DNA from: Flavobacteriales bacterium
Lineage (GTDB): Bacteria; Bacteroidota; Bacteroidia; Flavobacteriales_F; PHOS-HE28
DNA length: 64,000 bases
NCBI GenBank assembly: GCA_016703105.1
Contig: JADJCS010000007.1
Location: forward strand, 143,810 to 207,809
Direction of reading: 5' to 3'
The notes beneath the pieces are model-generated. The model saw only the letters and a list, made by a program, of their open reading frames with translations, had not been told where the DNA came from and searched no databases. Below, in pieces: positions 3,451 to 34,630 of the stretch (position 1 is the first letter of the stretch; the number at the start of each line of letters is the position of its first letter). Position numbers and translations under genes: made by a program.

Positions 3451-4944
3451 ATGAGCGTAGGTGCAGCGCAGCTTGGCTTGCGCCAGAACTGGAAACAGTT
3501 CACCTTGCTCGTCATCGTCAACGCCTTCGTGGGCGGCATGGTGGGTATTGAACGCACGGTGCTGCCCATGCTGGCCGAACAGGACTTCGGCATCGCATCG
3601 CGGACGGCCGCGCTCTCCTTCATCGTGGCCTTCGGTATCAGCAAGGCGCTCAGCAACTACTTCGTGGGCAGACTGGCCGGTCGCTTCGGTCGCAAGTCGA
3701 TGTTGGTAACGGGCTGGTTGCTGGCTTTGCCCGTGCCGTTCATGTTGATCTATGCCGATGCGTGGTCGTGGATCGTGGCCGCCAACATCCTGCTGGGTAT
3801 CCATCAAGGCTTCGCATGGAGCAGCACTGTGGTGATGAAGATGGACCTCGTGGGCGAGAAGGACCGCGGCCTCGCCATGGGCTTGAACGAATTCGCCGGA
3901 TACCTCGCGGTGGCGGCGGTGGCCTTCCTCACCGGCTTGCTCGCTGCGGAATACGGCCCGCGGCCGGTTCCGTTCCAGGTGGGCATCGGTATCGCGGTGG
4001 TGGGCCTGCTGCTCACGGTGCTGTGGGTGAAGGATACTGGACACCATGTACATGCTGAAGCAGCGAAGAGCGCGGTGCCGCTGTTGGAAAAGCCCTTCCT
4101 CGATACCTCAGTACGCCATCGCGTGCTCGGAAGCGTGACGCAGGCGGGACTGGTGAACAACCTGAACGACGGCATGCTCTGGGGCCTGCTGCCGGTACTG
4201 CTGGCCGGGCAGGGCTTCAACACGGCGAGCATCGGGGCCATCGCGGCGGTGTATCCAGCCGTGTGGGGTTTGGGGCAATTGCTCACGGGCAAGCTCGCCG
4301 ACCATGTGGACCGCAAGCTGCTGCTGGTGCTGGGCATGGTGCTGCAAGGGATCGCGATCCTCTTCCTTCCCTATGTGGACGCACAAGGCACGTACATCGC
4401 GCTCAGCGCCACGCTCGGCCTAGGCACCGCGCTGGTCTACCCAACTTTCCTGGCCACCATCGCCGCGCACACACATCCGAAGCAACGCGCCGAGAGCCTC
4501 GGCATATTCCGCCTGTGGCGCGATCTGGGCTACGCCATCGGTGCGCTGCTCACCGGCCTCATCGCCGACCGCTTCGGGCTCACCGCCTCCATCCTCTCCA
4601 TCGGGGTCATCACCGTGATATCCGGTCTACTCGTTTGGTTGCGCATGCCGGCGGAACGTCGCTGCCTGGAGCCCATCGACCTGAAAAAGTGGTTGGAAAA
4701 ACCGGATGTGCGTGTAGTGGATGTGCGTTCCCCGGAAGAGTACGCGAGCGGTCACCTGCCGGAGGCCATCAACATACCCGTGGACCGCCTGCTGGAACAG
4801 GCGCGCACCTGGCCAAAGCGGCAGCGCATCGTTACCGTATGCGCCAAAGGCGGTGGCCGCAGCGCACAGGCTGCGCAGTTGTTGCGCGATGTGGGCTTCG
4901 GAAGGACGTGGTGGTTGTGCGGGGGCACATTGGGATGGAGCTGA
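3451..4944 (+). CDS. MFS transporter fused to C-terminal rhodanese domain
   Basis: About 12 predicted TM helices with MFS-type loop 'GRLAGRFGRK'. The C-terminal ~100 aa carry the rhodanese loop 'VTVCAKGGGRSAQAA' with active-site Cys. Confidence 0.8.
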   Translation: MSVGAAQLGLRQNWKQFTLLVIVNAFVGGMVGIERTVLPMLAEQDFGIASRTAALSFIVAFGISKALSNYFVGRLAGRFGRKSMLVTGWLLALPVPFMLIYADAWSWIVAANILLGIHQGFAWSSTVVMKMDLVGEKDRGLAMGLNEFAGYLAVAAVAFLTGLLAAEYGPRPVPFQVGIGIAVVGLLLTVLWVKDTGHHVHAEAAKSAVPLLEKPFLDTSVRHRVLGSVTQAGLVNNLNDGMLWGLLPVLLAGQGFNTASIGAIAAVYPAVWGLGQLLTGKLADHVDRKLLLVLGMVLQGIAILFLPYVDAQGTYIALSATLGLGTALVYPTFLATIAAHTHPKQRAESLGIFRLWRDLGYAIGALLTGLIADRFGLTASILSIGVITVISGLLVWLRMPAERRCLEPIDLKKWLEKPDVRVVDVRSPEEYASGHLPEAINIPVDRLLEQARTWPKRQRIVTVCAKGGGRSAQAAQLLRDVGFGRTWWLCGGTLGWS

Positions 4945-5029: not shown

Positions 5030-5680
5030 TCAAGCCGGAGCCAGTTCCCTTTTCGCGAGATAGAAATCGATCAGTTCGATCCCCTTCTCATTGAGGCGTG
5101 CGTCGAGGTCCTTCAAGGTCTTTGGCGGTGGCACGATCACCTTGTCGCCTTTTTTCCAGTTCACGGGCATGGCACAGGCGTTCGCGTCCACGGTCTGCAT
5201 GGCTTCCAGCACACGCTTGATCTCATCCATGTTCCGGCCCACGTTCAGCGGGTAGTACATGATGAGGCGGATGATACCCTTGGGATCGATGAAGAACACG
5301 GCCCGGACCGCAGCGGTGCTGCTCGCATTGTCGTGAAGCATGCCGTAGAGATGGGCCACCTTCATATCGATATCCGCGATGATCGGAAAATCCATGTACA
5401 CACCGGTCTTCTCGCGCACCGCTTGTACCCAGGCCACATGGCTATGGATGCTATCGATGCTCTCGCCGATGAGCTTCGTATTGCGGTCCGCGAACCACTT
5501 CTTCTCCTGGGCGAAGCCGGAGAGCTCGGTGGTGCATACCGGCGTGAAGTCGGCCGGATGTGAGAAGAGAATTGCCCAACTACCCTTGATGTACTCGCTG
5601 AACTTGATCGGGCCGGTCGTGGTGAGGGCCTCGAAATCGGGAGCTTGGTCGCCGATGCGGGGCATGTGTGTGGTTTCCAT
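5030..5680 (-). CDS. 1-Cys peroxiredoxin (Prx6-like)
   Basis: 'FTPVCTTE' peroxidatic-Cys motif; whole-length similarity to 1-Cys Prx. True start may be Met at 5665. Confidence 0.9.
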   Translation of the reverse strand: METTHMPRIGDQAPDFEALTTTGPIKFSEYIKGSWAILFSHPADFTPVCTTELSGFAQEKKWFADRNTKLIGESIDSIHSHVAWVQAVREKTGVYMDFPIIADIDMKVAHLYGMLHDNASSTAAVRAVFFIDPKGIIRLIMYYPLNVGRNMDEIKRVLEAMQTVDANACAMPVNWKKGDKVIVPPPKTLKDLDARLNEKGIELIDFYLAKRELAPA

Positions 5681-20701: not shown

Positions 20702-21364
20702 ATGGCCACCGCCCCGCTACACATCGCCGTGGTGGACGATCACCCCCTCGTCCGCAGAGGCTTCGTGGACATGCTGAGCGGCTGGCCCCAAGGCAAGGTG
20801 GTGGTGGAAGCCGCCAATGGCCTGGACTACGAGGAGCGCTGCGCGGAGGTGGGCCATATCCACCTGGCCGTGGTGGACCTGCGCATGCCCGTGCGCGATG
20901 GCTACGACACCATTGCCTGGATCACCCGCCACCAGCCGCGCACCAAAGCGCTCGCCCTTACCTACGACCCCTGCACGCACAGCGCACAGCGCGCGCTGCG
21001 CTGTGGGGCCCGGGCCTTCCTCGCCAAGGGCATCAGGCGCGAGGAACTGCAACGGGCCTTGCACACGGTGCATACCGCGGACTTCTACTACAACACCTAT
21101 GTGGATCGCGCCCTGCGCCGGCAAGTGGAGGAAGAGGCGGCCATGGCGCACCCGGACAAGCTCATCGCCAGCCTCACCCCGCGCGAAAAGGAGTTCCTCC
21201 TGCTCTACACCGCACCCGGCAGCCCCAGCATCGTGGAAGTGGGGCGACGCATGGGCCTCAAGCCGGAAAGTGCCGAAAAGCTGCGCCAGGCCGTGGTAAG
21301 GCGTCTCGGCATTTCCGACCGGGGGGAAATGGTGCGGTTCGTATTGGTACACGGGGTGAAGTGA
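20702..21364 (+). CDS. two-component response regulator, LuxR/NarL family
   Basis: Receiver domain (DD...D...K pattern: 'VVDDHP', 'VVDLRMP'). C-terminal LuxR HTH 'LTPREKEFLLL...'. Confidence 0.8.
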   Translation: MATAPLHIAVVDDHPLVRRGFVDMLSGWPQGKVVVEAANGLDYEERCAEVGHIHLAVVDLRMPVRDGYDTIAWITRHQPRTKALALTYDPCTHSAQRALRCGARAFLAKGIRREELQRALHTVHTADFYYNTYVDRALRRQVEEEAAMAHPDKLIASLTPREKEFLLLYTAPGSPSIVEVGRRMGLKPESAEKLRQAVVRRLGISDRGEMVRFVLVHGVK

Positions 21365-21474: not shown

Positions 21475-23124
21475 TTATGGGTGATTCGCTGATGGCCGAG
21501 TGAGTTTGCGCAATTCGGCTAAAGCCGCATTGATCTCATCGCCCTTTGCAGCTATCAGATCCATCAATTCGATCGGGGTCCGCTCATCCACATCCGCTTT
21601 CCGGTTCGGGTTCACGGCCTTCAGGTCGTAAACGCTGTTGAGCCGGTCCTTGCGCTTGGCCTCGTCAAGCTTCGCTGCTTCCTCTTGGGCTTTCTTCTTC
21701 CGCGCATCCAGGTCAATGGTCCAACTGCGTTCACTATCGGTGCGGGTGGGTAGCAGGCGGAAGAACTCCTCGAAGTGGTCCAAGGTCATTGGGTTCTTCT
21801 TGCGGATCTTCAGATCGCTGAGGTCGTAGTACCAGATCTTGCGCGTGGGCTGGCCCTTGGTGAAGAAGAGCAAGTTGGTCTTTACGCCTGCGCCCGCTTG
21901 GGTGAAGACACCACCCGGCAAGCTCACGATGCACCATAAATCACACTCGTTCAAGAGCTTCTGCTTAGTCTTCACGAAGGCATCCTCGTTCGCACGGAAG
22001 AGCACGCCTTCGTCGAGCACGATACCGCAACGGCTCTTGTTCTTCATGTGCTTCAGCAAATGCTGTATGAAGAGCACCTGCGTGCTGCTGGTTTTGTAGG
22101 CGAAGTCCGTTTGCGCCTCCTTGCCCTCCTTGCCGCCGAAGGGTGGGTTCGTGAGGATCACATCGAAGAATTCCGGTGCGCCTTCAAAGAGACCTTCATA
22201 GTCAATGCGACCAGTAAGGGTGTTGCCCCACCAGAGGTTGGGCTTGTCGATGCCGTGCAGGATGAGATTGGCCAGCGCGATGGGAAAAATGAGACCCTCT
22301 TTCTCGCGGCCGAAGAAGGTCTTGTTCTTCAGTGTGGTCAACTGGTTGGCCGTGGCCTTGGCGCCGTAGGTGTTGATCACGTGCTCATAGGCCTCGGCCA
22401 AGAAACCACCGGTACCACACCCCGGGTCATAGATGGTCTCGCCGGGTTTGGGGTCGATAGCCTTGACAACCGCTTTGATCACTTGACGAGGCGTGAAGAA
22501 CTGCCCACCGTCGTTGTTCTTTTCGCCCATCTTCAGCAACAGGCCTTCGTAGACCTGGCTGAGCGCGAAGACGTGCGAGGAATCCATGCTTTCCTGTTGC
22601 AGCTCGTGGACTTTGTCGAGCACATCAAGGAAGTTACGCTCCGTATCCACCCGCACTTTCTCCACGCTGTTCATCACCTCGCTGATCACCTTCTGGCGGG
22701 CGGTGGCGCGCGGATGGTCCTTCAGGCTCTTTAGGTAGGGCAGCAACTTCTCGTTCACGAAGGCGAACAAGGAGCCTTGCGGCGCGGACGTGAGTTCCTC
22801 ACGTTTCTTGGCCTTGGGCGCTGCCCAGTCCTGCCAACGGTATGGCGCGTTGATGCTCGCAGCGAACGCGCGCCCTACGGCCTTGTTCTCGCTCGCCTCC
22901 TGTGTCTCGCGCTCATCCAGGATCCGCAGGAAGAGGATCCACGTGAGTTCGGGGATGTACTGCAACGCGCTGGTGCAGCCACCGCGACGCAGGATGTCGC
23001 AGATGGTCTTCACCGCGCTGTTCACGCTGCTTTGCGAGGACAAGGCACGAGCCATTTCCTTCGGCACGCGCTCCTTCTTCACCTTGCCTGGCGCGGCATT
23101 CTTGCGGGGGTGTCCTTTGGGCAT
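21475..23124 (-). CDS. hsdM: Type I restriction-modification system DNA methyltransferase subunit
   Basis: N6-adenine MTase motifs 'DPGCGTGGFL' (motif I) and 'NPPFGG' (motif IV). 549 aa. Confidence 0.95.
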   Translation of the reverse strand: MPKGHPRKNAAPGKVKKERVPKEMARALSSQSSVNSAVKTICDILRRGGCTSALQYIPELTWILFLRILDERETQEASENKAVGRAFAASINAPYRWQDWAAPKAKKREELTSAPQGSLFAFVNEKLLPYLKSLKDHPRATARQKVISEVMNSVEKVRVDTERNFLDVLDKVHELQQESMDSSHVFALSQVYEGLLLKMGEKNNDGGQFFTPRQVIKAVVKAIDPKPGETIYDPGCGTGGFLAEAYEHVINTYGAKATANQLTTLKNKTFFGREKEGLIFPIALANLILHGIDKPNLWWGNTLTGRIDYEGLFEGAPEFFDVILTNPPFGGKEGKEAQTDFAYKTSSTQVLFIQHLLKHMKNKSRCGIVLDEGVLFRANEDAFVKTKQKLLNECDLWCIVSLPGGVFTQAGAGVKTNLLFFTKGQPTRKIWYYDLSDLKIRKKNPMTLDHFEEFFRLLPTRTDSERSWTIDLDARKKKAQEEAAKLDEAKRKDRLNSVYDLKAVNPNRKADVDERTPIELMDLIAAKGDEINAALAELRKLTRPSANHP

Positions 23125-23129
23125 GCGGG

Positions 23130-23573
23130 TCAGGTCTTCAGCGCGCCCTTGGCCAAGCGATCACGAACGGAATTGCTCAGCATCACAGGAGGCTGCTTAT
23201 CAGAACCTGTCATATCAAGGCATCCATCGAAGCGATCAGGAAAAGGAATGATCTGCGCGTGAGCGCCATTCTCGGGGTCTTCTGCGGGATGGGGATCGTG
23301 GCAAACGCACAAGGCCAATGAGCGCACATGGGCGGTGGCCAAGCGGCACAAGCAGTACTTACCGGGATCCGTTGTCGCCTTCTTGGCCCGTTCCAGCGTG
23401 GTCAATCGCTCTACATCCACAGAAAGCCCACTTTCCCCCTTGTCTTTGCGCAACCGGAATGCCAGCGGTGTCGCCGTTCCATCCTCGCGGAAGTAATTGT
23501 CTCCTTCAGCGTACACCCGGCGCAGCAACATGTCAGCGTCAGCGATCGCCTGCCGTGGTATCCTACTTTCCAT
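23130..23573 (-). CDS. hypothetical protein Z, RM-embedded cargo
   Basis: ORF 23130..23630; start ambiguous, with ATGs at 23573 and 23531. Stop is 6 nt before the hsdM start. No recognisable family. Confidence 0.4.
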   Translation of the reverse strand: MESRIPRQAIADADMLLRRVYAEGDNYFREDGTATPLAFRLRKDKGESGLSVDVERLTTLERAKKATTDPGKYCLCRLATAHVRSLALCVCHDPHPAEDPENGAHAQIIPFPDRFDGCLDMTGSDKQPPVMLSNSVRDRLAKGALKT

Positions 23574-24048
23574 GCAGATGGTCCAACAGGCGGTGCGGGC
23601 GGTACGCACCCTCATAAGGATATTCATCACCCTCGATCAGGAGCAATTCGTTGCCGTCCTCTGCACTGAAGTACACTTGGGCCTGCCGTTTACCAGGGGC
23701 CTTGAACTCGATAAACAGTTCGCCGTTGGGCCCTGCACCGATGTGGTTAGGGATGAAACCAGCGTAGCCCAGGTCCTTCACAGCTCGCTTCGCCATGCGC
23801 ACCGTGGCTTGTGATGGGGCAATGGCACCCATGCCGTCCCAATCTGCCTTGAGTGCGCGTGTGCGTTCGATCCGGGCCAGTTGGTAACGCAACTCTTCGC
23901 TCACGGGGTATGAGAGGTGCGCATCGATCACAGAACTGGTGGCGCTGGAAGAGAACGCGATGGTGAGCAGCCCTTTGATCTTGTCCGACCAAACGCTGGT
24001 GTAATCGTCCACTTGCGTGGGTATGCCAAGGCTAAGCGAAGGAGGCAT
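23563..24048 (-). CDS. hypothetical protein Y, RM-embedded cargo
   Basis: 161-aa ORF with ATG start, tightly packed between X and Z. No recognisable family. Confidence 0.4.
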   Translation of the reverse strand: MPPSLSLGIPTQVDDYTSVWSDKIKGLLTIAFSSSATSSVIDAHLSYPVSEELRYQLARIERTRALKADWDGMGAIAPSQATVRMAKRAVKDLGYAGFIPNHIGAGPNGELFIEFKAPGKRQAQVYFSAEDGNELLLIEGDEYPYEGAYRPHRLLDHLHGK

Positions 24049-24778
24049 GGAAGTCGGGTTGGCAGAAGTCCTTGAAAAGCTTCGAACTCAGATCGTGCGC
24101 AGTGTTACCCCAAGCCAGCAGCCCGGCGCGGTCGAAGGATCCTTTCCGCTGCACGGTGGTTTGCCAGATCAGGCGGTCATCGCCGTCACGATCCGTGCCA
24201 CTGCCGATCTGCAAATGCAGTTGGTCGTCGTCGGGCAGGTCGAACAGCTGCTGAAACGAGACGTCCTTGGGCACCATGCCATGGTCGAATTGGTTGGCGA
24301 AGCCGAAGCGTAGGTGCTTGGAGATGAACGACGCCCAATCGGTGAAGCCATAGTCCTTCACCTTCACACTGTCTATGTACCGCAAGGCCACCTGCTCATA
24401 GGGCAAGGTTCCGTCGTAGGCTTTCTCCAGCATTTCCAACCCGTAGATCAGGGTGGGCTGGTAGCTCTCCTGCCAATCGTAGTTCTTGTCCGTATCGTTC
24501 ACGGTGAACACTCCGGGGCCCAATTGCAGCAACGGGCTGGCACCTGGCTCCTTCCGGAATTGCAGCACCGCCTGCCGTGCGAAGAGGTGCTGAGTAAGCG
24601 GATGGAATGGCAGTCGCTGATCCACATGCGGGAAGCGTTCCTGCACATGGGCTTTTAGCGCACCGGCGGCCAAACTATATTTCTGGTCGTACTCCTGACC
24701 CGTAGCCTGGTCGGTATCCAAGGCCCACCGGGCCTCGAAGATCACTTCTTGCAAGGGGGCGTTCGATAGGCGGCTCAT
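24032..24778 (-). CDS. hypothetical protein X, RM-embedded cargo
   Basis: ~250 aa; start trimmed to MSRLSNAPLQEVIFEARW. Directly downstream of hsdS; no recognisable catalytic motif. Confidence 0.45.
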   Translation of the reverse strand: MSRLSNAPLQEVIFEARWALDTDQATGQEYDQKYSLAAGALKAHVQERFPHVDQRLPFHPLTQHLFARQAVLQFRKEPGASPLLQLGPGVFTVNDTDKNYDWQESYQPTLIYGLEMLEKAYDGTLPYEQVALRYIDSVKVKDYGFTDWASFISKHLRFGFANQFDHGMVPKDVSFQQLFDLPDDDQLHLQIGSGTDRDGDDRLIWQTTVQRKGSFDRAGLLAWGNTAHDLSSKLFKDFCQPDFHASFA

Positions 24779-24864
24779 CAGGAGGTCAACGCAAAGTAAT
24801 CCGGCTTGGTGCGCGCGCAACGGCGAGCCTGCTAAATTGTGTTACACAAAGGCATGTTGGCAAG

Positions 24865-26070
24865 CTACCCGCCTCCGAACACCGCCCCCAACAACTTCCC
24901 GGGCAGTGCCTCGATCACCGCACCTTCTTCGTTGCACTTCGCCACGGTACCCCGGCTTAGCCGGATCGCCTTCTCCAACCGATCCGCGATGGAGCGTTGT
25001 TCAGCCAGCGAAGGCACATGTAGTTGCAGACTCTTGATCGTGGGCATGTACACCGTCTTGTGCGTGGCCCCGCTGGATAGGCCTCGGAAAAAATGCCGCG
25101 ATGCCATGAACGCGTACATCAAGTAGCGAGGGTCCAGTTGTTCGCCGCACACCCAGTTCGCGAAGTCCTGACTGGTAGCCATTTCACGCCCCATGATGGT
25201 GGTGAAGCCTACCGACGCCGTGCGCGAAAGACACACCGTTCCCTTCGGGAGCAGTCGCGCGGCGGAGTTCGCCAAGCCCAACTCGTTCGTGCGTTCACCG
25301 GAGCGCATGGCCACTTCTCCATCCAGCCTGCGCACATCGGAGAGTTGCAACCACTCCACATCGCCATGCCACCATTCGGGATGGTTCCGGCTCGGGGTAT
25401 GGCCGCTTTCCAATCGCGCCAACTTGGTGATCAGTTTCCACGACCAGCCCTTTCGTTCACCTACTTCATCGCTGTCCAGTGCTACCGGAACGATACCATG
25501 GAACGCATCCAGCAACAGCTTTGCTTCCAACCTCCCCGCCGCCGCTACCCGCTCCGCCGCCGCCTTGCGCGCCTTCTCTACTGCCGCCAGCTGCCCTGTG
25601 AGCAAACCCGCGATGCGGTTCTGTTCGTTAGGTCCGTGCTTCGGCACCATCATCTTCATCAACTCTTTCATACTCGCACGGGGCATCCTCGACCCGGTGG
25701 TATCTCTCATAGCTAACTCAACCGCTTCAGGACGCCGCAACAAATAGGAGAGATACTCACGGGAAGTGCCGGGGGTCGGAAGCAAGGGGATGATCTCCGT
25801 CGTACACCTTCCGGGCTGGTCGGGCAGTGCGACTTTGTTCAAGTAGGGCCGAAGCTTCCCATAGAGCACATGGCGTTCATCGTAGTAGAACGTGGTGCTC
25901 TTGCCTTCATCCGCGACCGCATCTTCTGGTTCCTTCAGCAGCCGACCAGTCTGCGCCTCGACGTGCTCCAAGCTGAGGTAGGAAAGTCGGCGGGCCTCTG
26001 CGGAGCCACCTTCAACTATCCTCCTGTCTTCGATGCAGAGTGATAACAGCGGGATGAACTCGCTCTTCAT
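24865..26070 (-). CDS. hsdS: Type I restriction-modification specificity subunit
   Basis: 401 aa with two target-recognition domains separated by conserved coiled-coil spacer regions. ATGA overlap with the upstream hsdR tail. Confidence 0.85.
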   Translation of the reverse strand: MKSEFIPLLSLCIEDRRIVEGGSAEARRLSYLSLEHVEAQTGRLLKEPEDAVADEGKSTTFYYDERHVLYGKLRPYLNKVALPDQPGRCTTEIIPLLPTPGTSREYLSYLLRRPEAVELAMRDTTGSRMPRASMKELMKMMVPKHGPNEQNRIAGLLTGQLAAVEKARKAAAERVAAAGRLEAKLLLDAFHGIVPVALDSDEVGERKGWSWKLITKLARLESGHTPSRNHPEWWHGDVEWLQLSDVRRLDGEVAMRSGERTNELGLANSAARLLPKGTVCLSRTASVGFTTIMGREMATSQDFANWVCGEQLDPRYLMYAFMASRHFFRGLSSGATHKTVYMPTIKSLQLHVPSLAEQRSIADRLEKAIRLSRGTVAKCNEEGAVIEALPGKLLGAVFGGG

Positions 26071-26354
26071 GCCGCAAACATCCGCTTCTTGGTTTCCTCG
26101 AACAATACGGCAGGTTCACCGGCTAATTGCAAGGCCTGCAAGCCACCGGCATTGCGCACGGCAGGCGTTTGAAAGATCTGCGGGTTCTCCAGGCCCTCGG
26201 TGCCTTCCACTTTGAATTGCCCGGCAATGGCCAGCAGTGCAGCGCGCGTCTTCTCCGGCAAGGTGTGCAACCAGTCCTCATGCTTGTAGCGGAAGGCCCC
26301 ACGCGGTCTTCCGCGTGCGCGGCAAGGCACCCCAGCCCAGTTGCGCCAGCACAT
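26067..26354 (-). other. hsdR: out-of-frame C-terminal fragment of hsdR (EcoEI_R_C-like tail)
   Basis: '...YKHEDWLHTLPEKTRAALLAIAGQF...ENPQIFQTPAVRNAGGLQAL' is the conserved HsdR C-terminal domain. The frame shift sits at the C/G run near 26295-26300. Confidence 0.6.
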
Positions 26355-28461
26355 CGTACAGGTCGTAGGCTTCCATGGCGTCCACCAGTTGCACCACAGC
26401 CGGGCTGCAACCGCTGCTCACGAGCAGGTGCATCAGTTCCTCGCGCGTGGGTGGGTCCACCCATTGCTGCCGGAACTCTTCCAAACTGTGCGCTTCCTGC
26501 AAGAGACGTGTGGCCAGGCGCTGGCGGTATTCCTCCACGGGTATCGGCTTGGCCTGCCCATCCACCTCCGCCACGATGAAGTGCCCGGCGGGCGATACAT
26601 GCACGTCGAAGCCATCCACGGTGATGATGCGCGGGGGCTCACCCTCGCCGCCTCCTTCACTTCCTTCACCTTCTTTCTTCGGCTTGGTAATGAACTCCTC
26701 ACCGAATAGCCGCGTGGCGTTGGTGTAATCGTAGAGCCGGAACATCAGCTTCTGGCTCTCGGGGTGCAGGCGTGTGCCGCGCCCCACCATCTGGTAGAAG
26801 CTGATGGGACTCTTGAGGTATTTGAAGAAGACGATGTTGCGGATGATGGGCACATCCACGCCGGTGGTGAGCAGGTCCACCGTGGTGGCGATGAAGTGGC
26901 TGCGGGTGCTGGCGCGCAGGTCCGGCAGTTGGTCGTTGCCACTGCTGGCCGCCGTGCATTTGAAGGCGTACATGTCCAGCCGTTCGGCACCGTTGGCGGT
27001 ACACCATGCGGCGTAGAGGTTGTTCAGCTTCACAGCAACGGCATCGGCATGTGCATCACGGGCGCAGAAGATGATGGTCTTCTGTTCCGGACCGCCGCTT
27101 TCCAACAGGTAGTTGAAGAGGTCCTGGCACATGGCCGCCACGCGGTCCGGCAGCATTAAGCTGTTCTCGTAGGCGGTGCTGGCATAGTGCTCCTGTACGT
27201 CGGCCGTGGTAAGCAGCTCCCCTGTGCGAGCATCGCGTGGTTCGCGCGCCATGATCTCCTCCACGGTAAGGCCGCGCTCATCGATGCTCACGCGACCCTT
27301 CTTTATCTCGCATGCGGCGAGGTAGCCATCCTCCACGGCCTGTGTATAGCTGTACTCATAAACCGGTTCGCCGAAGTATTTCAGGTTGTTGGCGGTGATG
27401 GCCTTGTCGGCCTCGGCTTCCTTGGTGTGTGCCTCAACGGTCAGTTCGCGCGGTGTGGCGGTGAGACCGATCTGCGCGGCCTTCGCGTTGCGCTCCAGCA
27501 CTTTGCTCCACTTGCCCCATGCGCTGCGGTGGCACTCATCGATGACGATGTGTGAAAAGTGGTTCTCGGGATAGAAGGTGGTAAGGAAGGACGCGTCGCC
27601 CTCATCCGTATCGACCCCGAGCGTTTGGTAGGTGGCGATGTGAATGCGTGCGTTCTTGGCGTTGTTGGTCTCGCCCTTCTTGTACACCTCGGCGGCATCG
27701 GCACCGAAGGCGTTGTTGAAGGCACCGAGCGCCTGCGTGCGCAGTTCGTCGCGGTCGCAGAGGAAGAGGGCGCGCGTCATCTGGCCGGAATCGCTCAGGC
27801 GCTTGAGCAGATTCACGGCAATGAAGGTCTTGCCCGCACCGGTGGCGAGCGAGAGCAAGGCGCGCTTAGGTTCACCTGTCTTCTCGCACCGCGCCATCTT
27901 CTCGAACACGGCACGGATGGCGGCATCCTGATAATAGCGGCGCGTGCCTTCGCCGGTGGCATAAGGCTGCAACAGTGGCTTGGCGGCCTCGTCGTTCAAG
28001 CTGAAGCCTTGGGCCGATTCGTAGCGTGTGCGCAATTCATCCGGCCCAGGAAAATCGGACATCGGCATTGCGACCGTGGTCATGCCCGTATGCCTATCGA
28101 ACAGCACGAACATGTGCCCGTTGCTGCTGATAACGAACTGCACGTTCAGCCGTTCGCACTTGGCGTAGCACTTGGCTTGTTCCAGACCATGTCCAGGCAT
28201 CAGGCTTTCCTTCTTCGCTTCCAGTACCGCGAGCGCAACGGGCTGTTTGCCGCCGGTAACGCTCACGCGCAGCACATAATCCACCTTGCCGCTGCGCTGC
28301 CTGCGGGCCTTGTTGTCACCAATAAGGTCGATGCCGCCCGCCGTTTCCTCCCGCCGGATGTGGTCCTCGTTCCACCCGCACCGATAAATGGCGGGGTCGA
28401 TGAGCTTGGCGCGGGTGTCGGCTTCGTTGAACAAGGCGGGTGAAAGTAGGGTGCGGAACAA
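26278..28461 (-). CDS. hsdR: Type I restriction enzyme R subunit (frame breaks near C-terminus)
   Basis: N-terminal nuclease/'DUF' region, SF2 helicase motifs ('LATGAGKT', DEAH-like 'VIDECHRS'). The 727-aa frame ends at 26278; the conserved C-terminal domain continues in another frame. Confidence 0.9.
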   Translation of the reverse strand: MFRTLLSPALFNEADTRAKLIDPAIYRCGWNEDHIRREETAGGIDLIGDNKARRQRSGKVDYVLRVSVTGGKQPVALAVLEAKKESLMPGHGLEQAKCYAKCERLNVQFVISSNGHMFVLFDRHTGMTTVAMPMSDFPGPDELRTRYESAQGFSLNDEAAKPLLQPYATGEGTRRYYQDAAIRAVFEKMARCEKTGEPKRALLSLATGAGKTFIAVNLLKRLSDSGQMTRALFLCDRDELRTQALGAFNNAFGADAAEVYKKGETNNAKNARIHIATYQTLGVDTDEGDASFLTTFYPENHFSHIVIDECHRSAWGKWSKVLERNAKAAQIGLTATPRELTVEAHTKEAEADKAITANNLKYFGEPVYEYSYTQAVEDGYLAACEIKKGRVSIDERGLTVEEIMAREPRDARTGELLTTADVQEHYASTAYENSLMLPDRVAAMCQDLFNYLLESGGPEQKTIIFCARDAHADAVAVKLNNLYAAWCTANGAERLDMYAFKCTAASSGNDQLPDLRASTRSHFIATTVDLLTTGVDVPIIRNIVFFKYLKSPISFYQMVGRGTRLHPESQKLMFRLYDYTNATRLFGEEFITKPKKEGEGSEGGGEGEPPRIITVDGFDVHVSPAGHFIVAEVDGQAKPIPVEEYRQRLATRLLQEAHSLEEFRQQWVDPPTREELMHLLVSSGCSPAVVQLVDAMEAYDLYDVLAQLGWGALPRTRKTAWGLPLQA

Positions 28462-28551
28462 CGCGAGGGTATGCCATTAGCCGTCCCGCGATGCCACGAC
28501 CCAACTGAAATGCCTGCGTTCTTCAGGCGTGGTGCTAACCTGCCTACCCGT

Positions 28552-29382
28552 TCACCCTGCCGTGAGCAGGTTCGCAAGCACATTCGCACCAACGTCCTTG
28601 GCGAATTTGGCGGTGTGCCTGGACACCTCCACCGCCGCCCGCATCAACTTCTCACGGTTGCGGTCTTCAATTGTCCCGATCAGTCGCTCCACCCAGGGTC
28701 GATCTTCCTTAACGATGGCTATCGAAGTACCCTCCATCGCATCGCTTAAAGCCCGTGCATCGCGCAGGAGCAATTGCCAACCTTCTTCGTCGATCACTTC
28801 AGCGTTCTCGATGAATGGAAGCTGCAGCTGCACGGACTTGCGGAAGTGCATGTCCATCTGGGTAGACACAGGGCCTTCGATCAAGTTCAAGTACGAAGCA
28901 CGGAAACTCTCGGTCGGGGTGGCGTTCGCGATGATCTTCACCTTCTGGAATTTTTCGCGGATCAGGTCTTTAGAGATGTAGGTGATAAGCCAAGTGCGGA
29001 ACGTTTCCTTTTTCGAGAGGTAAGCACTGTCGTAGAGCACATGCACGATGCGCTCAGTGCTATAGCTCCGCGCTCCGCTATCATCCCCGTTCAGCTCACG
29101 TGAGTTGTTGAAGAAGCGGATCTGTTGGTTGCGCACTTGCTTGGGGTTTACCCTGAACTCCACCTGCAACGCTTCGACCTTTTCATGGAGTGGAACCCTA
29201 CCCCGCACACCGGCAATAGAAGTGATGGAAAGATTGTGCACGTACACATAGAAATCATTCAGGTCGAAACCCTTCAGACAGCTGATCTCCTTCACTTCGC
29301 TCGCAACCACCTTCAATGTAAATGGGCTGAGGACTTGATCACAGTGGATGCGAAATCCGAAGTAGCGCTCAAGATTCGTCAT
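28552..29382 (-). CDS. hypothetical protein, compositionally atypical (lower GC than surroundings)
   Basis: 276-aa ORF immediately upstream of hsdR. GC by eye ~52-55% against ~65% background. No motif assigned. Confidence 0.5.
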   Translation of the reverse strand: MTNLERYFGFRIHCDQVLSPFTLKVVASEVKEISCLKGFDLNDFYVYVHNLSITSIAGVRGRVPLHEKVEALQVEFRVNPKQVRNQQIRFFNNSRELNGDDSGARSYSTERIVHVLYDSAYLSKKETFRTWLITYISKDLIREKFQKVKIIANATPTESFRASYLNLIEGPVSTQMDMHFRKSVQLQLPFIENAEVIDEEGWQLLLRDARALSDAMEGTSIAIVKEDRPWVERLIGTIEDRNREKLMRAAVEVSRHTAKFAKDVGANVLANLLTAG

Positions 29383-29738
29383 CGGATCGGTCTTGGAGTG
29401 ACGCCAAACTACGCGTTACCACTTGGCGATCCATCGCTCGAGGCCGGGATTCTTGGGATCCAAGGCTCTCGGAAGGGCTTCCGAGAGCTTTATGATCCTA
29501 CAAAGCCCAGCGGTGCATCAGGGAAAGTATAATCGACCCAGCTATAGGTGGCCTTCAGCGATCAGGCCCCTTGGCAGCGGGTGCATTCGCACCGCACAAC
29601 CATTTTACCAAGTAATCAATGAGCTCCGCTTACCTCTTCGTTCCGTTCAAGAAGGCATTCACGACAACCTGTCAACCACTAACCAACCAACCCATTGGCC
29701 CACCAACCCATGGGCTCCGCCCACCTTTTTGATCCGCG

Positions 29739-30116
29739 GACCATGGTCTTCACCGAAGACACCTTGGTCTCCCGGTCCGGGACCATAGTCTCCGAACAGT
29801 AGACGATGGACTCCGGACAACAGACCATGGTCCGCAAGCAGCAGCCAATGGTCTCCGACGCGCGGACGATGGTCTACACCGAAGAGACGATAGTCTCCCG
29901 GTGCGAGACCATGGTCTCCGAATAGCAGACCATGGTCTGCGAGCAGTAGACGATGGTCTCCGACGCGGGGACGATGGTCTACTCCGAAGAGACGATCGTC
30001 TCCCGGCGCGGGACCATGGTCTCCGAACAGCAGACGAGGGTCCGCAAACTCTAGACGATGGTCTGCCACGCGCGGACCATGGTCTACGACGAAGAGACGA
30101 TGGTCTTCCGGTCCGG
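29739..30116. repeat. tandem array of ~18 x 21-bp units (core GACCATGGTC palindrome) with 5-unit (105-bp) higher-order periodicity
   Basis: Read directly: units 'acSatggtctNNNNNNNNNNg' cycle through five tail types (..ccgaagag / ..cccggNNcgNg / ..ccgaacagcag / ..gcgagcagtag / ..ccgacgcgggg) about 3.5 times. Confidence 0.9.
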
Positions 30117-30315
30117 TAGCGCGGCCATGCGCCGGTGTGCCGATGCATTTCCTGGAAAGCGCATGGGGCGCGGCTTACAGGCGGTGATCACCCGGTGTAC
30201 CGGGTAAGGATCGAACCCCGGTACACCGGGGGAAAAAGAACGATCGCCGGGGGCTTTGCGATTCACCGGACATAACCAACGCTTTTGTGGGTACAGCAGG
30301 ACAGGCCCTCACCGC

Positions 30316-30948
30316 ATGAAGAAGATACTCTATACCGTAAAGCTTGGATTCACCAAGTTGACCGCCGCGGCCCTGGTCGGAAAGGGACGCACCAATGTGG
30401 AGATGTTGACGGGCAACGCGACCTACGCAACGCCGATCCCGCCACTCGCCACGATCACCGCCGCTTGCGACACGCTCGATGTGGCGAGCAATGCCTACGA
30501 TTTCTCCCGTAGCCGTTTGGACAAGGAGGACCGCGATGTAGCGTTCGCGGAATTGAAGGGGCTGTTGAAGGAATTGGGTGGCTACGTGCAAGCCATCAGC
30601 AAGGGGGACAAGGATCTGATCTTGAGCGCGGGCTTCGAAGTGGAGAAGGCCGCCAGCCCGATCGGGCAGCTCCCCGCCCCGCCCAATGTACGTGCCCTCG
30701 TAACGCCCTACCCCGAGCGCCTCGAGGTGAAGTGGGGGGGCGTAAAGGGCCGCACCACTTATGAACTGTGGATGACCGATGGTGATCCCAAAGTGGAGGC
30801 GAACTGGAAGCTCCACGCCATCACCAGCAAGAACCGCGCGATGGTGGAAGGCCTCACCAGCAACACCATCTACTTCTTCCGTGTAGTGGCGCAAGGCGCC
30901 GCCGGGGCCAGCCCGGTGAGCGATACCGCCAACGCGAAAGCCGCCTGA
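30316..30948 (+). CDS. hypothetical protein with fibronectin type III-like C-terminal domain
   Basis: Start trimmed to MKKILYTV. C-terminal '...YELWMTDGDP...WKLHAITSKNRAMVEGLTSNTIYFFRVVAQGAAG' resembles an FN3 beta-sandwich. Confidence 0.45.
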   Translation: MKKILYTVKLGFTKLTAAALVGKGRTNVEMLTGNATYATPIPPLATITAACDTLDVASNAYDFSRSRLDKEDRDVAFAELKGLLKELGGYVQAISKGDKDLILSAGFEVEKAASPIGQLPAPPNVRALVTPYPERLEVKWGGVKGRTTYELWMTDGDPKVEANWKLHAITSKNRAMVEGLTSNTIYFFRVVAQGAAGASPVSDTANAKAA

Positions 30949-31023
30949 TCCTTATCCTTCGACGCAGACCCCGGTATCCCTCGCACAAGGGATGCCGGGG
31001 TCGCCGGCGTAGAAAGCGATCCG

Positions 31024-31815
31024 ATGCTTACGATGCACCCGCTCGAAACCCACGAACTGCGCGACGCCGCGCAGCTCTGCCCCCGCGACCCCAACGCCCT
31101 GTTGGGGCATTTGCGTTGGTGCATGTGTACGCCTTACGCGGAAGCGTTCTCCATGCGGCTGGGACCCAAAGTGCTCGGCGTGGCCACTCTGGTACACTTC
31201 GGCACCACCTCGCGCGTGGGCTGCTTCCACATCCACCAGGCGCACCAGCGCAAAGGCTTGGGCACCCTCCTCGCACTGCACTTGCGGAATGTGCAGGATC
31301 AAGAGGATCGCTCCACCCTCATGGTGCAAGCCGCACCGCAGGAGGCCGCTTTCTGGGAACGCCTGGAGTTCACCGAGCAATGCACCTTCACCACGTATGC
31401 GAACGGCCACTTCATCGAAGCCAGCCGCGATGAGGTGGCGCTGATGGAACCCGCGCACACCCTCGCCCTTCTGCACCTGGACAAGCACGCCACAGGTGAG
31501 GACCGGCGCGCGCTACTGCTCGAGCATCAGTACGCCGCCCACGCTTACGTGGAGCAGGGACGCGTGCGCGGCGCCCTGCTGCCGCTGGTGGGCCAGGGCC
31601 TCATCATCGCCGATGCGCCAGCGGTAGGCCTCGAACTGCAACGCTGGCTACCGCCCACCCAGCACCGCATTACCGTGCCTGCGGACAATGCCGCCGCCAA
31701 CGAGCACTTGCGCGAACGCGGCTATGATCCCATCGGTAGTAGTGTGCGGCTGGTGCATGGGTCGGCGCCTGCCTTCAAGGCGGAGATGGTTTTTGCTTGG
31801 CCTTGGGGGAGGTGA
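31024..31815 (+). CDS. GNAT-like acetyltransferase family protein (weak)
   Basis: 'VHPEHQRKGLG'-type acetyl-CoA binding motif, seen here as 'IHQAHQRKGLGTLL'. Confidence 0.35.
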   Translation: MLTMHPLETHELRDAAQLCPRDPNALLGHLRWCMCTPYAEAFSMRLGPKVLGVATLVHFGTTSRVGCFHIHQAHQRKGLGTLLALHLRNVQDQEDRSTLMVQAAPQEAAFWERLEFTEQCTFTTYANGHFIEASRDEVALMEPAHTLALLHLDKHATGEDRRALLLEHQYAAHAYVEQGRVRGALLPLVGQGLIIADAPAVGLELQRWLPPTQHRITVPADNAAANEHLRERGYDPIGSSVRLVHGSAPAFKAEMVFAWPWGR

Positions 31816-31906
31816 GCACTACCGGGCATCCCACATTCCGCAGCACCGGTGCGCGAAGCAGCGAACCTTCCGCACCAACCGTCTGTTCGTTCACCAACTT
31901 CGCCGC

Positions 31907-33244
31907 ATGGTACGTTCCATTCTCTTCGCCCTCCTTTCCCTGGCAGCCGCACCCCACCTGCCTGCGCAATGGGTGCCGGGCGACTCCTTTGGCAGCACCT
32001 ACCACCACCAGGCATGCGCCTTCCACGATGTGGATACGGGCCTCTTCGTCTATGGCACGGACAACCCGAACAGCGGCGAGGGCGGCGTGATCATCACCTG
32101 GTCCGGGTTGACGGACTCCGGCGGCGTGATCTGGTACCAGTCCTTCATGAACCTGGAGGACATCGACGTGCGCATGGGCAGCAACGGCCGGCCCATTTAC
32201 CTGGCAGCGGGGCATAAGCAATACGCGTTCAGTGTGGCGTTGCATCCCTACCTGGCCGGTGGCAACCCCTTCCAGTTCGACAGCGTGCGCACGGGCGACG
32301 CCCGCCACTACCGCGCCATCCGCATGCGCAGTGATATCGTGGCCTTCGCCGGCGGCGGCAATTATGTGGGCGACGGCATCATCGACATGAGCGTGGACAC
32401 CGGCTACACGTGGACGAACATCGCGGTGCTGCCGGGTCAACCCGTTTCGCGTCTGCACTTCGTGGACGACCTGCTGGGCTTCGCGGCCACCGGCGGCTAC
32501 CGGCGCCTGGCCGCTTTCGGCGTGAACGTCCCGGACAGCGGCGCCATCTACCGCACCACCGATGGCGGCTTGAACTGGCTGCAGGTACACCGCGATACCA
32601 TCACCGGTTTCTCCGATGTCGCCTTCAGCTCGCTCACCACCGGTGTGGCCACGCGCAACGATGGGGTGATCCTGCGCACCACGGACGGTGGCACCACCTG
32701 GGTGCCCGCCGTGGTGAACCTGCCCGCCGCCAGCGTGATGACCTCCGTGACCTTCCGTCCGGATGGGACCGGCTTCGCCAGTGCGTACCGCGCAGATGGA
32801 GTGAGCGGCTACATATTGATCAGCACCGATGACGGCCAGACCTGGGACGAGAACTTCAACACGAGCGGCTTCAACCACTCGCGCCGCATCTACGATGTGT
32901 ACTTCTACGATGATGCGCACGGCTATGCGAGCACGCACATCCGACCGCTGCGCACCAGCGGGCTGGTGACGGATGTGCCGGAGATCGTAGAGCAAACCCT
33001 CGTCCTCTACCCGAACCCGGCGATCGATCTCGTGCAGCTGGCGTGGGAGTTGCCGGGTGCCGCGACGGGCGGTGGTCGGTTGTCGGTTGTAAGTGCGCAC
33101 GGGCAGTTGGTCAGCGACTTACCGATCGCACCAAGTACCACGAGCTATACGTTGGATGTCTCGAACTACCCGCCCGGACTTTACCATTTGCACTTGGTGG
33201 TGGATGGGCAGCTGGTGAGCGCGGCGAAGGTGGTCATCGAATAA
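31907..33244 (+). CDS. secreted Ycf48/BNR-repeat-like protein with T9SS C-terminal domain
   Basis: Signal peptide MVRSILFALLSLAAA. Repeated 'TTDGG.NW' / 'TTDGGTTW' / 'STDDGQTW' BNR-like motifs. C-terminal T9SS CTD. Confidence 0.7.
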   Translation: MVRSILFALLSLAAAPHLPAQWVPGDSFGSTYHHQACAFHDVDTGLFVYGTDNPNSGEGGVIITWSGLTDSGGVIWYQSFMNLEDIDVRMGSNGRPIYLAAGHKQYAFSVALHPYLAGGNPFQFDSVRTGDARHYRAIRMRSDIVAFAGGGNYVGDGIIDMSVDTGYTWTNIAVLPGQPVSRLHFVDDLLGFAATGGYRRLAAFGVNVPDSGAIYRTTDGGLNWLQVHRDTITGFSDVAFSSLTTGVATRNDGVILRTTDGGTTWVPAVVNLPAASVMTSVTFRPDGTGFASAYRADGVSGYILISTDDGQTWDENFNTSGFNHSRRIYDVYFYDDAHGYASTHIRPLRTSGLVTDVPEIVEQTLVLYPNPAIDLVQLAWELPGAATGGGRLSVVSAHGQLVSDLPIAPSTTSYTLDVSNYPPGLYHLHLVVDGQLVSAAKVVIE

Positions 33245-33259
33245 CGCGTTCGCGACTCT

Positions 33260-34630
33260 ACACTTGCTGCGATAGATCCACTGAAGAGGACTGAGCAGGA
33301 AGGCAGGTGACCCATCGTTCGCGATAGGAGCGAGTCCTATGAATCCTTATTGGTACCTGTCTTCCACTCGGGTCGGAGGCTCAGATAGAATTTCAGGCAG
33401 TCAGGCCTAATAGAGTCATCAAGCATACGGCCCTTCGCTCAGTCCCTCCAGGGATCATTGGTGTAACTCAAAACTACGAGGACATGGACCTATGTATCGG
33501 GATCGATGTGAGTAAAGCCCACCTGGACCTAGCCTTGATGAACGCATCCGGAGCCGTTTTGGGGACCGAGCGGATCACCAATGAAAGCAAGGCGATCAGA
33601 GCATTGCTGAAGCGATGGCACAAGCAGTTCGGAGTGACCAAGGCCAATGCGCTGTTCTGCCTGGAACCTACGGGGCACTATGGGTACCTGCTGGTGGAAG
33701 AACTCATGCGGGCCGGTCTGCCGACCTGGCTGGCACATCCGCTGGACATCAAGCACAGCATCGGAAGCACACGGGGTAAGAACGATCGGATCGATGCCCA
33801 GCGCATTGCCGATTATGCCCGTAGGCACCACGACAAAGCCCGATTGCTGGGGCCTGGTTCTTTGCGCATGAACAAGCTCAAGCAGCTGCTTACGTGCCGA
33901 CGTCAACTGGTGACGGACAAACGCCGCCATCAGGTGAGGATCAAAGACCTGAACCGCCATGTGGACAGATCGCTCCGAGCTTTGTTCGATCGTCTGAGCC
34001 AAGAGCGGATCGAACAGATCGACACGCAACTGGAGAAGATCGAAGCCGCAATTGTGGACCACATCCATGCCGATCCACGGCTACGCGAGCAGTATGTGCT
34101 GCTCCTTAGCGTGGATGGCGTGGGACCCGTATTGGCAGCGCACCTCCTGGCATGCACCGAAGGCTTTACACGCTTTGCTACCGCCCGCCGCTTAGCCTGT
34201 CAGGCTGGTGTGGCTCCCTACGAGCACTCTTCGGGCTCCAGCATCCATGGTCGCACACGCGTATCTCCACAAGCCGACCGCGTGCTGAAAACGCTGCTGC
34301 ATATGGCAGCACTCGGTGTGATAGCTCGTGCTGGTGAGCTCCAGGACTATTACAAACGAAAGCGTGCTGAAGGCAAGGCCCTATGCTGGTGATCAACGCT
34401 GTGCGCTGCAAGATCCTACATCGCCTGTTCGCAGTGGTCCAACGAGGTACCCCCATTTGTCCGGACCCCACTTGCACAGGTCATAGAATAAGGATCAGCA
34501 CCGAGGGCAACGCCCAAGGTGATGGCCGAAGCGATCTTTAATTCGCGCGTGGGTTGTGCGTGGCAATAAATGATCACGTACGGATCCAACAAGATCGCTT
34601 CGCGCCGACGACGGACGCTCGCGAACGCGG
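33260..34630 (+). mobile_element. IS110-family insertion sequence (boundaries approximate)
   Basis: IS110-type transposase ORF flanked by lower-GC non-coding DNA, sitting between convergent genes. IS110 elements lack clear TIRs, so the ends are estimated. Confidence 0.5.
33484..34392 (+). CDS. IS110-family transposase (C-terminal tail frameshifted; tail continues 34389..~34490 in another frame)
   Basis: N-terminal DEDD-type domain 'IGIDVSK', central 'RGKNDRIDA' motif. The conserved C-terminal 'MLVINAVRCKILHRLFAVVQRG' is encoded out of frame just after the stop. Confidence 0.8.
   Translation: MDLCIGIDVSKAHLDLALMNASGAVLGTERITNESKAIRALLKRWHKQFGVTKANALFCLEPTGHYGYLLVEELMRAGLPTWLAHPLDIKHSIGSTRGKNDRIDAQRIADYARRHHDKARLLGPGSLRMNKLKQLLTCRRQLVTDKRRHQVRIKDLNRHVDRSLRALFDRLSQERIEQIDTQLEKIEAAIVDHIHADPRLREQYVLLLSVDGVGPVLAAHLLACTEGFTRFATARRLACQAGVAPYEHSSGSSIHGRTRVSPQADRVLKTLLHMAALGVIARAGELQDYYKRKRAEGKALCW

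Follow-up and report, generated by a model that had tools for sequence, protein, structure and literature searches.

A conserved array of phased 21-bp palindromic repeats upstream of an FN3-family gene in Flavobacteriales: a candidate operator array for a NarL/LuxR-type response regulator

Introduction

What is the role of an array of short palindromic repeats that lies beside a restriction-modification (RM) island in the chromosome of a Flavobacteriales bacterium (assembly GCA_016703105.1, contig JADJCS010000007.1)? The array was found in a stretch of 64,000 nt (positions 143,810 to 207,809 of the contig, forward strand), which was analysed as a whole and is referred to here as the window. 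A first-pass annotation made from the letters alone had offered three candidate roles, namely an iteron-like protein-binding array, a phase-variable or recombinogenic minisatellite, or a decayed heptad-repeat coding sequence. The reading that we propose, and to which we give about an even chance of being correct, is that of a non-coding cis-regulatory element composed of phased operators, which would be bound by a response regulator of the NarL/LuxR type. The gene that follows the array encodes a protein of 210 aa with a helical N-terminal domain and an FN3 domain and is called the FN3-family gene below. Positions are those of the window unless stated otherwise, names of the type L035 designate comparison loci or contigs, and coordinates are collected in Table 1.

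Results and discussion

Anatomy of the array and sequence constraint

The array consists of 18 head-to-tail units, each exactly 21 bp long, without a single indel when the units are laid out from position 29739. Tandem Repeats Finder detected only two periods here, 21 and 105 bp, of which the latter is the stronger (29801..30112, 3.0 copies, 84% matches, 0% indels, score 435). The 378-bp array of 21-bp repeats and its 105-bp higher-order period were thus described correctly at first pass, and a 7-bp tandem repeat unit is ruled out. The array sits in an intergenic gap of 933 bp, with a local G + C content of 0.55-0.62.

Units start with (A)GAC[C/G]AT[G/A/C]GTC(T)CC, in which TCC is usual after the core, and continue with a variable tail of 8-10 nt. 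The core consensus, GACnATnGTC, forms a dyad of 10-12 bp with the half-sites GAC-N4-GTC. The perfect palindrome GACCATGGTC is present in six of the 18 units, GACGATGGTC in five and the palindrome GACGATCGTC in one. A palindrome at the unit junctions had been noted before and is present, whereas the estimate that about half of the units carry it in perfect form was too high. The tails fall into five types, which run in the order A B C C' D E / A B C D E / A B C D E / A B. Their fixed order stands, but they do not cycle regularly in the first super-repeat, which has six units due to the extra C'.

The word GACNATNGTC occurs 14 times in the window, every copy being inside the array and in register, compared to an expectation of 1.16 and a maximum of 4 in 100 dinucleotide-preserving shuffles. 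The information content is about 2 bits at unit positions 1-3, 5-6, 8-10 and 13, and 0.2-0.6 bits at most positions of the tail. The two variable positions of the core, 4 and 7, are mirror images of each other in the dyad, as is typical of a protein site with dyad symmetry. A spacing of 21 bp corresponds to two helix turns, so that all sites are located on one side of the double helix.

Stability and exchange within the array

An assembly artefact, against which the first-pass annotation had cautioned, is excluded by two other assemblies that carry the same 18-unit array. The independent, conspecific metagenome contig L152 (Joint Genome Institute) is 98% identical to positions 27969..31320 without gaps. 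The congeneric metagenome-assembled genome (MAG) Flavobacteriales bacterium Hade_18-Q3-R52-61_BATAC.255 (L035) is approximately 90% identical to positions 29640-33255, and its units align one to one with those of the window. A constant copy number was also observed for the near-identical loci L219, L220 and L221 (20.7 units in each). Although this comparison is based on few genomes, it speaks against a minisatellite that varies in phase or changes its copy number.

The other part of the recombinogenic reading, sequence exchange between units, is borne out. Array identity between the window and L035 is 86% (47 differences over 336 comparable positions), compared to approximately 96% for the ~170 bp from the array to the next gene, and most of the divergence falls in the tails, the core being conserved. 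Unit 13 of the window is identical to unit 8 of L035, and unit 15 is nearest to unit 10 of L035. Some units hence resemble a unit one super-repeat away more closely than their positional partner, indicating that sequence is exchanged within the array at constant unit number. The 69 differences between L152 and the window are clustered at 28318-28387, 29955-30151, 30953-31052 and 31275-31308. Twenty of them fall inside the array, all in its second half, as part of a block-wise mosaic, which suggests recombination tracts rather than point mutation.

The array of L035 holds one +1 and one -1 indel. In the same MAG the FN3-family gene seems to be split by a frameshift (3428..3564 of L035), probably an assembly error. 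Since this implies possible assembly errors in that MAG, its indels carry little weight.

A functionless minisatellite, expanded by slippage or unequal crossing-over and left to drift, would explain the 105-bp structure and the exchange of units, both of which are products of unequal exchange, and also the faster divergence of the array compared to its flanks. It is nevertheless strongly disfavoured. Divergence spares the core, the 18 units are free of indels and the same copy number is found in three orthologues. In addition, position, period, a length of 13-21 units and orientation are kept between lineages whose linked proteins are only 54-65% identical, and an array is kept in another phylum-level group, as shown in the following section.

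Conserved position upstream of the FN3-family gene

Judged from the comparison of loci, the array goes with the gene to its right, not with the restriction island to its left. At least 149 homologues of the 210-aa protein were found, nearly all of them approximately 210 aa long, and those with names originate from Flavobacteriales MAGs. The DNA around 11 homologues was compared, and one further locus (P0023) was used at the level of gene calls only. All of the 12 other Flavobacteriales loci for which DNA was available feature an array of 21-bp period that is equally placed and oriented, at a distance of 200-360 bp from the ATG. Eleven of them contain 13-21 units, and L213 shows only degenerate periodicity (Table 1). 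The core differs between lineages and is locally confined to its own array, locus by locus. Even the two paralogous modules in a single genome (CP064979.1) have differing cores. A super-repeat of two units (42 bp) is a common feature of the relatives.

Scans of genomes and metagenomes for the DNA pattern are blind to genes. They returned many 21-bp repeats with GACNATNGTC, coding and chance ones included, an example being a His-rich stretch inside a long open reading frame (ORF) in L130 and L136. A pattern match alone therefore means little, and only matches with a family gene downstream were counted. A profile of the 210-aa family matches the ORF just 3' of the array in L120, L122, L126, L146, L147, L148, L151, L174 and L182, with weak matches in L080 and L162. 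Contigs from peat and lake show the order array, GC hairpin and gene, as in Flavobacteriales, and carry the Shine-Dalgarno-like sequence AGGAGG before the ATG, from which we infer that they do not belong to Bacteroidota. The same pairing in these contigs means that the array-gene pair reaches well beyond the Flavobacteriales clade.

The AlphaFold2 model of the 210-aa protein (predicted local distance difference test score, pLDDT, 89.8) shows an N-terminal helical bundle closed by a two-stranded sheet, followed by the C-terminal FN3 domain. Structure and sequence searches yielded matches to the FN3 part only, and no NCBIfam or PADLOC model matches the protein. When 50%-identity representatives were searched, some 50 of the top 150 matches were proteins of 195-230 aa that align end to end, the rest being giant multi-FN3 proteins. 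In the searchable literature, no description of these arrays or of the FN3 gene family was found.

Candidate regulator and the phased-operator model

The candidate binder encoded in the window yields full-length matches to NarL, UvrY and FixJ models and is 44-48% identical to the regulators of L219 and L211. In eight lineages (L212, L218, L219, L222, L223, L224, L225 and L226) a LuxR/GerE helix-turn-helix gene ends 30-150 bp before the array, and in most of these regulators a receiver domain is fused to the helix-turn-helix. The first-pass proposal to consider the LuxR-type regulator as a binder agrees well with this linkage. When the restriction island is subtracted, the window has the same order as its relatives: regulator, array, FN3-family gene and GNAT-family acetyltransferase gene. 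Across the eight lineages the recognition helices differ wherever the cores differ, and they are near-identical in L219 and L226, which share the core GTACATGTAC. The regulator of L211 was excluded from this comparison, as it lies downstream of the gene, like a second regulator in L225. The match between helix and core is suggestive of co-evolution.

In the mechanism that we propose, dimers of the regulator would bind the palindromes, and the phosphorylated protein would spread cooperatively along the array to form a long nucleoprotein filament. The filament would switch the FN3-family/GNAT operon and might also affect the type I restriction operon, which starts 357 bp to the left of the array. 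The array belongs to a conserved module that comprises, in this order, the LuxR-type regulator gene, the array, the GC hairpin, a conserved promoter-proximal motif, the FN3-family gene and the GNAT gene. Anatomy, core constraint, stable copy number, conserved position, linkage to the regulator gene and lineage-specific cores are observed, whereas binding by a protein, its identity with this regulator and the direction of the effect are inferred. The dyad half-sites, the centres spaced by 21 bp in all 18 units, the dyad-symmetric conservation and the regulator gene linked in eight lineages fit this model by analogy with characterised systems.

A close precedent is DevR/DosR of Mycobacterium tuberculosis, a member of the NarL/LuxR family that binds the palindrome TTSGGGACTWWAGTCCCSAA, which contains GAC-N4-GTC (PMC2275270). 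Tandem DevR boxes are centred 21 bp apart (-42.5 and -63.5), helical phasing is required for cooperative binding, and the arrangement occurs in divergent intergenic regions (PMC3177182). The window shares with these boxes the GAC-N4-GTC core, the 21-bp distance between centres and the location on one face of the helix. DevR promoters, however, have two to four boxes that reach the -35 region, whereas the 18 predicted binding sites of the window form a satellite-like higher-order repeat that ends approximately 200 bp before the gene. BvgA of Bordetella, which belongs to the NarL/FixJ family and acts at the pertussis toxin and fha promoters, binds as six head-to-head dimers with a spacing of 22 bp on one DNA face, nucleating at one site and spreading cooperatively (PMC7250471). 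Its dimers every two turns come near the 21-bp spacing of the window. The six BvgA sites are mostly weak and dissimilar, do not form a tandem repeat and abut the -35 element with the most downstream site, whereas the window has 18 near-identical cores in an array that does not adjoin its gene.

Several observations weigh against this interpretation. The number of 18-21 sites is three times that of the largest array described for NarL/LuxR regulators, and a hairpin lies in the interval that separates the array from the ATG, while the arrays of DevR and BvgA reach -35. The regulator gene of the window is located 8.4 kb from the array, L035 has no regulator within 3.7 kb and L216 none directly upstream. 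Array-gene loci from peat and lake lack an adjacent LuxR-type gene, their neighbours being HigBA, an extracytoplasmic function (ECF) sigma factor and DinB. The cores of L224 and L225 are barely palindromic. Lastly, the match between helices and cores is based on eight lineages and is confounded by phylogeny.

A rival reading keeps the phased operators but gives them another binder, which could be a regulator encoded elsewhere or the downstream gene product acting as an autoregulator. What accompanies the array constantly across phyla is the FN3-family gene and not the regulator, as illustrated by the peat and lake loci, and the array is intact in the window and in L035 although set apart from a regulator gene. 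Lineage-specific cores beside a fast-diverging linked gene also recall autoregulators. On the other hand, the FN3-family protein has no recognisable DNA-binding fold in its predicted structure, acidic and basic residues are about equal in number in its N-terminal domain, and the LuxR-type gene is found exactly upstream of the array in eight lineages. We regard another binder as unlikely, but as an alternative to be taken seriously.

The interval between array and gene

A GC-rich hairpin separates array and gene in every Flavobacteriales locus examined. In the window it has two 17-nt arms and a 12-nt loop, and across the six lineages compared in detail both sides have changed at nine of the 18 predicted pairs, i.e. 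the changes are compensatory. A T-run follows the hairpin in L211, L212, L216 and L219, whereas an A-run is found in the window and in L035. With TAAGGATC in the window and GATCCTTA in L219, the loop looks as though it had been inverted. A smaller terminator-like hairpin with a T-run is located at 29711..29733 on the + strand, within the leader to the left of the array. A tRNA fragment or att site in the hairpin region GGATCGAAC was considered and rejected, since ARAGORN and Rfam searches were negative and no direct repeats flank the island.

The block next to the gene probably represents a short 5' leader or a core promoter. Two of its words, TGGGTACAGC (30288..30297) and AGGCCC (30303..30308), are invariant across six lineages, although the proteins are only 54-78% identical, and may constitute an unusual promoter or leader element. 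In the peat lineage a similar word, CGTGTAAGTACCC, occupies this place. No sigma-70-type consensus was found upstream by a scan that does not cover Bacteroidota promoters. The distance from the array to TGGGTACAGC clusters at 15-19 modulo 21, is blurred by indels and was not used as evidence. Several relatives carry an AT-rich palindrome of the type TACCATAC-TATA-TGGTA between the stop codon of the regulator gene and the array (Table 1); it was not seen in the window.

The array could also act at the level of RNA, either as a 3' tail on the transcript of the regulator or as a long leader to the downstream gene, with neighbouring cores pairing into a row of hairpins that controls stability or termination. 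The predicted fold of the array RNA is stable (-198.7 kcal/mol, z = -9.2 compared to shuffles), the two-unit super-repeats of the relatives would suit such pairing, and the conserved hairpin closes the region, in four lineages with the T-run mentioned above. The fold score is, however, a trivial consequence of repeated palindromes. Eleven of the 18 cores of the window are not self-complementary, self-pairing of GACGATGGTC results in two G-G mismatches, the cores of L224 and L225 are not palindromic, and variation at core position 4 is independent of that at position 7. No Rfam match was obtained even at E <= 1, and the array persists in the window and in L035 without an upstream gene that would transcribe it. 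A function at the RNA level is thus improbable.

Coding potential, CRISPR and plasmid-type repeats

As stated at first pass, three frames are free of stops across the whole array, two of them on the minus strand and the third on the plus strand, because the repeat unit has no stops in those frames. Together with the unit length of seven codons, this is what a coding heptad repeat or its remnant would predict. The remaining three frames carry multiple stops, and the open frame on the plus strand has no start codon before 29901. The G + C content at third codon positions is 0.53 in the longest ORF of the array, compared to 0.68-0.88 in the flanking genes. Substitutions relative to L035 are distributed over the codon phases as 18/16/13, without phase bias. 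The +1 and -1 indels in the array of L035 also argue against coding, although that MAG may hold sequencing errors. No Pfam match was obtained for the ORFs of the array, and in relatives ORFs are called on either strand and with differing lengths. The strongest argument against coding, based on 13 related loci that were inspected directly, is that the cores of relatives are unrelated, and hence also the peptides. The array is accordingly not part of a conserved coding gene in relatives, and the decayed heptad-repeat sequence suggested before is rejected as extremely improbable. 'Hypothetical proteins' of 80-170 aa called on such arrays are spurious, and the array explains this class of annotation.

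Similar to CRISPR arrays, the array is intergenic, features regularly spaced short palindromic repeats and is located near defence genes. CRISPR arrays differ in their unique spacers and a period of about 60-70 bp, whereas the 11-nt 'spacers' of the window recur as five types in fixed order with a period of 21 bp. No cas family was detected among the Pfam and PADLOC matches of the ORFs scanned between 9 and 45 kb. The earlier statement that this is not a CRISPR array is in line with these results.

Iterons and centromere-like arrays of plasmids, such as sopC of F and parC of R1, consist of many phased protein-binding repeats, some with inverted-repeat cores. They adjoin rep or par genes on mobile replicons, and their specificity shifts fast between relatives. 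An integrated plasmid or mobile element could therefore have left such a site, given that phased direct repeats of 17-22 bp with inverted-repeat cores are a hallmark of plasmid origins and partition sites and that rapid change of specificity is typical of these systems. Neither a rep gene nor parA/parB-type genes were found among the neighbours, and at a G + C content of 0.55-0.62 there is no AT-rich unwinding region; DnaA boxes were not searched for. The array has zero matches in 72,556 plasmids and the linked protein no relative in viral contigs, by which a plasmid or phage origin is rejected; the bare DNA pattern by itself had matches in four viral contigs. The locus lies on the chromosome and keeps its synteny across genera. 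We consider iterons or a centromere-like site very unlikely. Of the 'iteron-like protein-binding array' proposed at first pass, the phased binding sites are favoured in a general sense; the array is not a set of replication iterons, rep, par and origin features being absent from its vicinity.

Restriction-modification neighbourhood

The type I island lies outside the array module, of which it marks the left boundary, and L035 lacks it here. To the left of approximately 29650, where synteny with L035 begins, that MAG carries other genes, including one that is TIGR04255-like by sequence. The placement of the array at the boundary of a defence island is thereby confirmed. RM genes are located within approximately 6 kb of the FN3-family gene in eight of 13 Flavobacteriales lineages, at varying positions. 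They are of type I in the window, L218, L222 and L223; the other loci have a large N6/N4 methyltransferase (L216), a methyltransferase with XhoI (L224), an MmeI-like system (L226) and an Eco57I/MmeI-like system (P0023). The binomial tail for eight of 12 lineages, with the window left out of the denominator, is 3e-10 to 3e-6 under a background of 3-10% that was assumed and not measured. Either the locus is a hotspot for RM islands, or the module has a role there.

Could the array itself be the hotspot, i.e. a recombination or insertion site or boundary element at which RM cassettes are exchanged? Synteny with L035 breaks about 90 bp to the left of the array and the cargo there differs between genomes, RM genes are frequent near the module, and the clustered differences to L152 and the exchange of units between super-repeats indicate recombination. 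A peat contig in which a diverged array lies directly upstream of hsdR and beside an integrase points in the same direction. However, RM genes are found upstream of the regulator, in the interval from regulator to array, or beyond the FN3-family gene on its downstream side, and at such differing positions they do not have the array as a shared junction. The island is flanked by neither direct repeats nor att-like sites, no integrase is present in it, and arrays also occur without RM genes nearby (L212 and L225). The conserved core, the exact phase and the stable unit number would be left unexplained. The chance that the array serves as an exchange site is therefore slim.

The peat contig is L173, with the same sequence in L129 and L187. 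Its 21-bp array is strongly diverged, with the core kept and unrelated tails; the hsdR gene is of type I, a DUF3800 gene accompanies the integrase, and no FN3-family gene is present.

Further neighbours are a protein of 475 aa and an insertion element (Table 1). The gene of the former adjoins the regulator gene, and its product has no Pfam, NCBIfam or PADLOC match. A 50%-identical relative is encoded in L216 (8669..9385), about 2 kb from the FN3-family gene, and the protein may be another member of the neighbourhood. The IS110-family element (DEDD_Tnp_IS110 and Transposase_20) is absent at the orthologous place in L035, where its flanks are contiguous.

Other repeat arrays

Arrays of 21-bp period in Cryomorphaceae MAGs (L016, L068 and L085; Table 1) are treated as unrelated, as their conserved part is GGTCCCGAGTT and not the palindrome. 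Their unit is CGCGACGATGGTCCCGAGTTG, with super-repeats of 84 and 231 bp, and one of them adjoins an ORF of 1620 aa, presumed from its sequence to be sprA. Many Bacteroidota genomes contain short runs with a period of 7 bp, e.g. GACCATG GTCCATG GACTATG GACCATG GTCTAT (L005, L015, L017, L027, L030, L032, L042, L047, L061, L066, L072, L076, L084, L092, L094, L101 and L102). Several of these adjoin the conserved gene start ATGGCAAAAAAGAGCATTTCAGA, and similar runs were observed in the Chloroflexota loci L003, L057 and L074. The heptamer runs seem to be a phenomenon separate from the 21-bp array (compare PMC4679880).

Table 1 Features of the window and of the comparison loci (coordinates of comparison loci are their own)
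Feature	Position	Strand	Remark
Protein of 475 aa	19230..20657	-	adjoins regulator gene
NarL/FixJ-type response regulator (receiver + LuxR/GerE helix-turn-helix), candidate binder	20702..21364	+	domain matches
Type I RM island	21475..29382	-	between regulator gene and array; transcribed away from array
hsdM	21475..23124	-	island gene
TIGR04255 gene	24032..24820	-	island gene
hsdS	24865..26070	-	island gene
hsdR	26278..28461	-	island gene
276-aa gene without assigned family	28552..29382	-	island gene
Leader	29650..29738	none	conserved with L035; left limit of synteny ~29650
Repeat array, 18 x 21-bp units	29739..30116	none	unit layout and Tandem Repeats Finder
Spacer between array and hairpin	30117..30187	+	within stretch ~96% identical to L035
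GC-rich hairpin	30188..30233	+	present in six lineages
Gene-proximal conserved block ACATAACCAACGCTTTTG-TGGGTACAGC-AGGAC-AGGCCC	30270..30315	+	multi-lineage comparison
210-aa protein, helical N-terminal domain + FN3 domain	30316..30948	+	gene consistently attached to array
GNAT-family acetyltransferase	31024..31815	+	downstream of FN3-family gene in most relatives
IS110-family element	33256..34490		transposase ORF 33484..34392
Array of L211			protein 78% identical to window; at least 13 units (contig end); core GACCATGGTC
Array of L212			protein 65% identical; ~20 units; core AACTGAACAGTT
Array region of L213-L215			protein 62% identical; no array by Tandem Repeats Finder; autocorrelation of upstream 900 bp peaks at lags 42, 21 and 63
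Array of L216 (near-identical: L217)			protein 58% identical; ~19 units; core GTACATGTAC decaying to TTATGTAC
Array of L218			protein 54% identical; ~18 units; cores GCCGATGACGGC and GGGCATCGCCC alternating
Array of L219-L221 (near-identical, one lineage)			protein 59% identical; 20.7 units; core GTACATGTAC
Array of L222			protein 58-59% identical; 20.3 units; core TCGATCG
Array of L223			protein 62% identical; ~18 units; core GTAGGCCTAC
Array of L224			protein 57-58% identical; ~17 units; core CTCAAGAG
Array of L225			protein 57% identical; ~15 units; core ACCATnGAG
Array of L226			protein 60% identical; 13.9 units; core GTACATGTAC
AT-rich palindrome of L212	~5195..5225		between regulator stop and array
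AT-rich palindrome of L216	~5310..5330		between regulator stop and array
AT-rich palindrome of L219	~5228..5250		between regulator stop and array
AT-rich palindrome of L226	~4378..4400		between regulator stop and array
Diverged array of L173	2271..~2900		peat contig
Cryomorphaceae array of L016	14..539		21-bp period, intergenic
Cryomorphaceae array of L068	56..103		21-bp period, intergenic
Cryomorphaceae array of L085	5249..5562		21-bp period, intergenic

Conclusions

The array flags a widespread, uncharacterised gene family that keeps company with RM systems, which makes the family a candidate for involvement in defence islands or their surroundings. Known phased operator arrays of NarL/LuxR regulators have two to six sites, and 13-21 near-identical sites would be an extreme case, with the length of the array held across many lineages, a satellite-like organisation and a core that is rewritten lineage by lineage. 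If the regulator is indeed the binder, such loci would be a natural system for the co-evolution of regulators and their sites, offering many regulator/core pairs for swap experiments, and would also allow study of how cooperative DNA filaments set thresholds.

It is a more speculative and rather doubtful proposal that a hitherto undescribed functional unit of defence islands is made up of the regulator gene, the array and the FN3-family and GNAT genes. If true, the module could be a signal-sensing switch that controls or cooperates with neighbouring RM systems. The FN3-family protein would be an effector, and the very long array, specific to each lineage, would function either as an ultrasensitive cooperative switch or as a sink private to the regulator.

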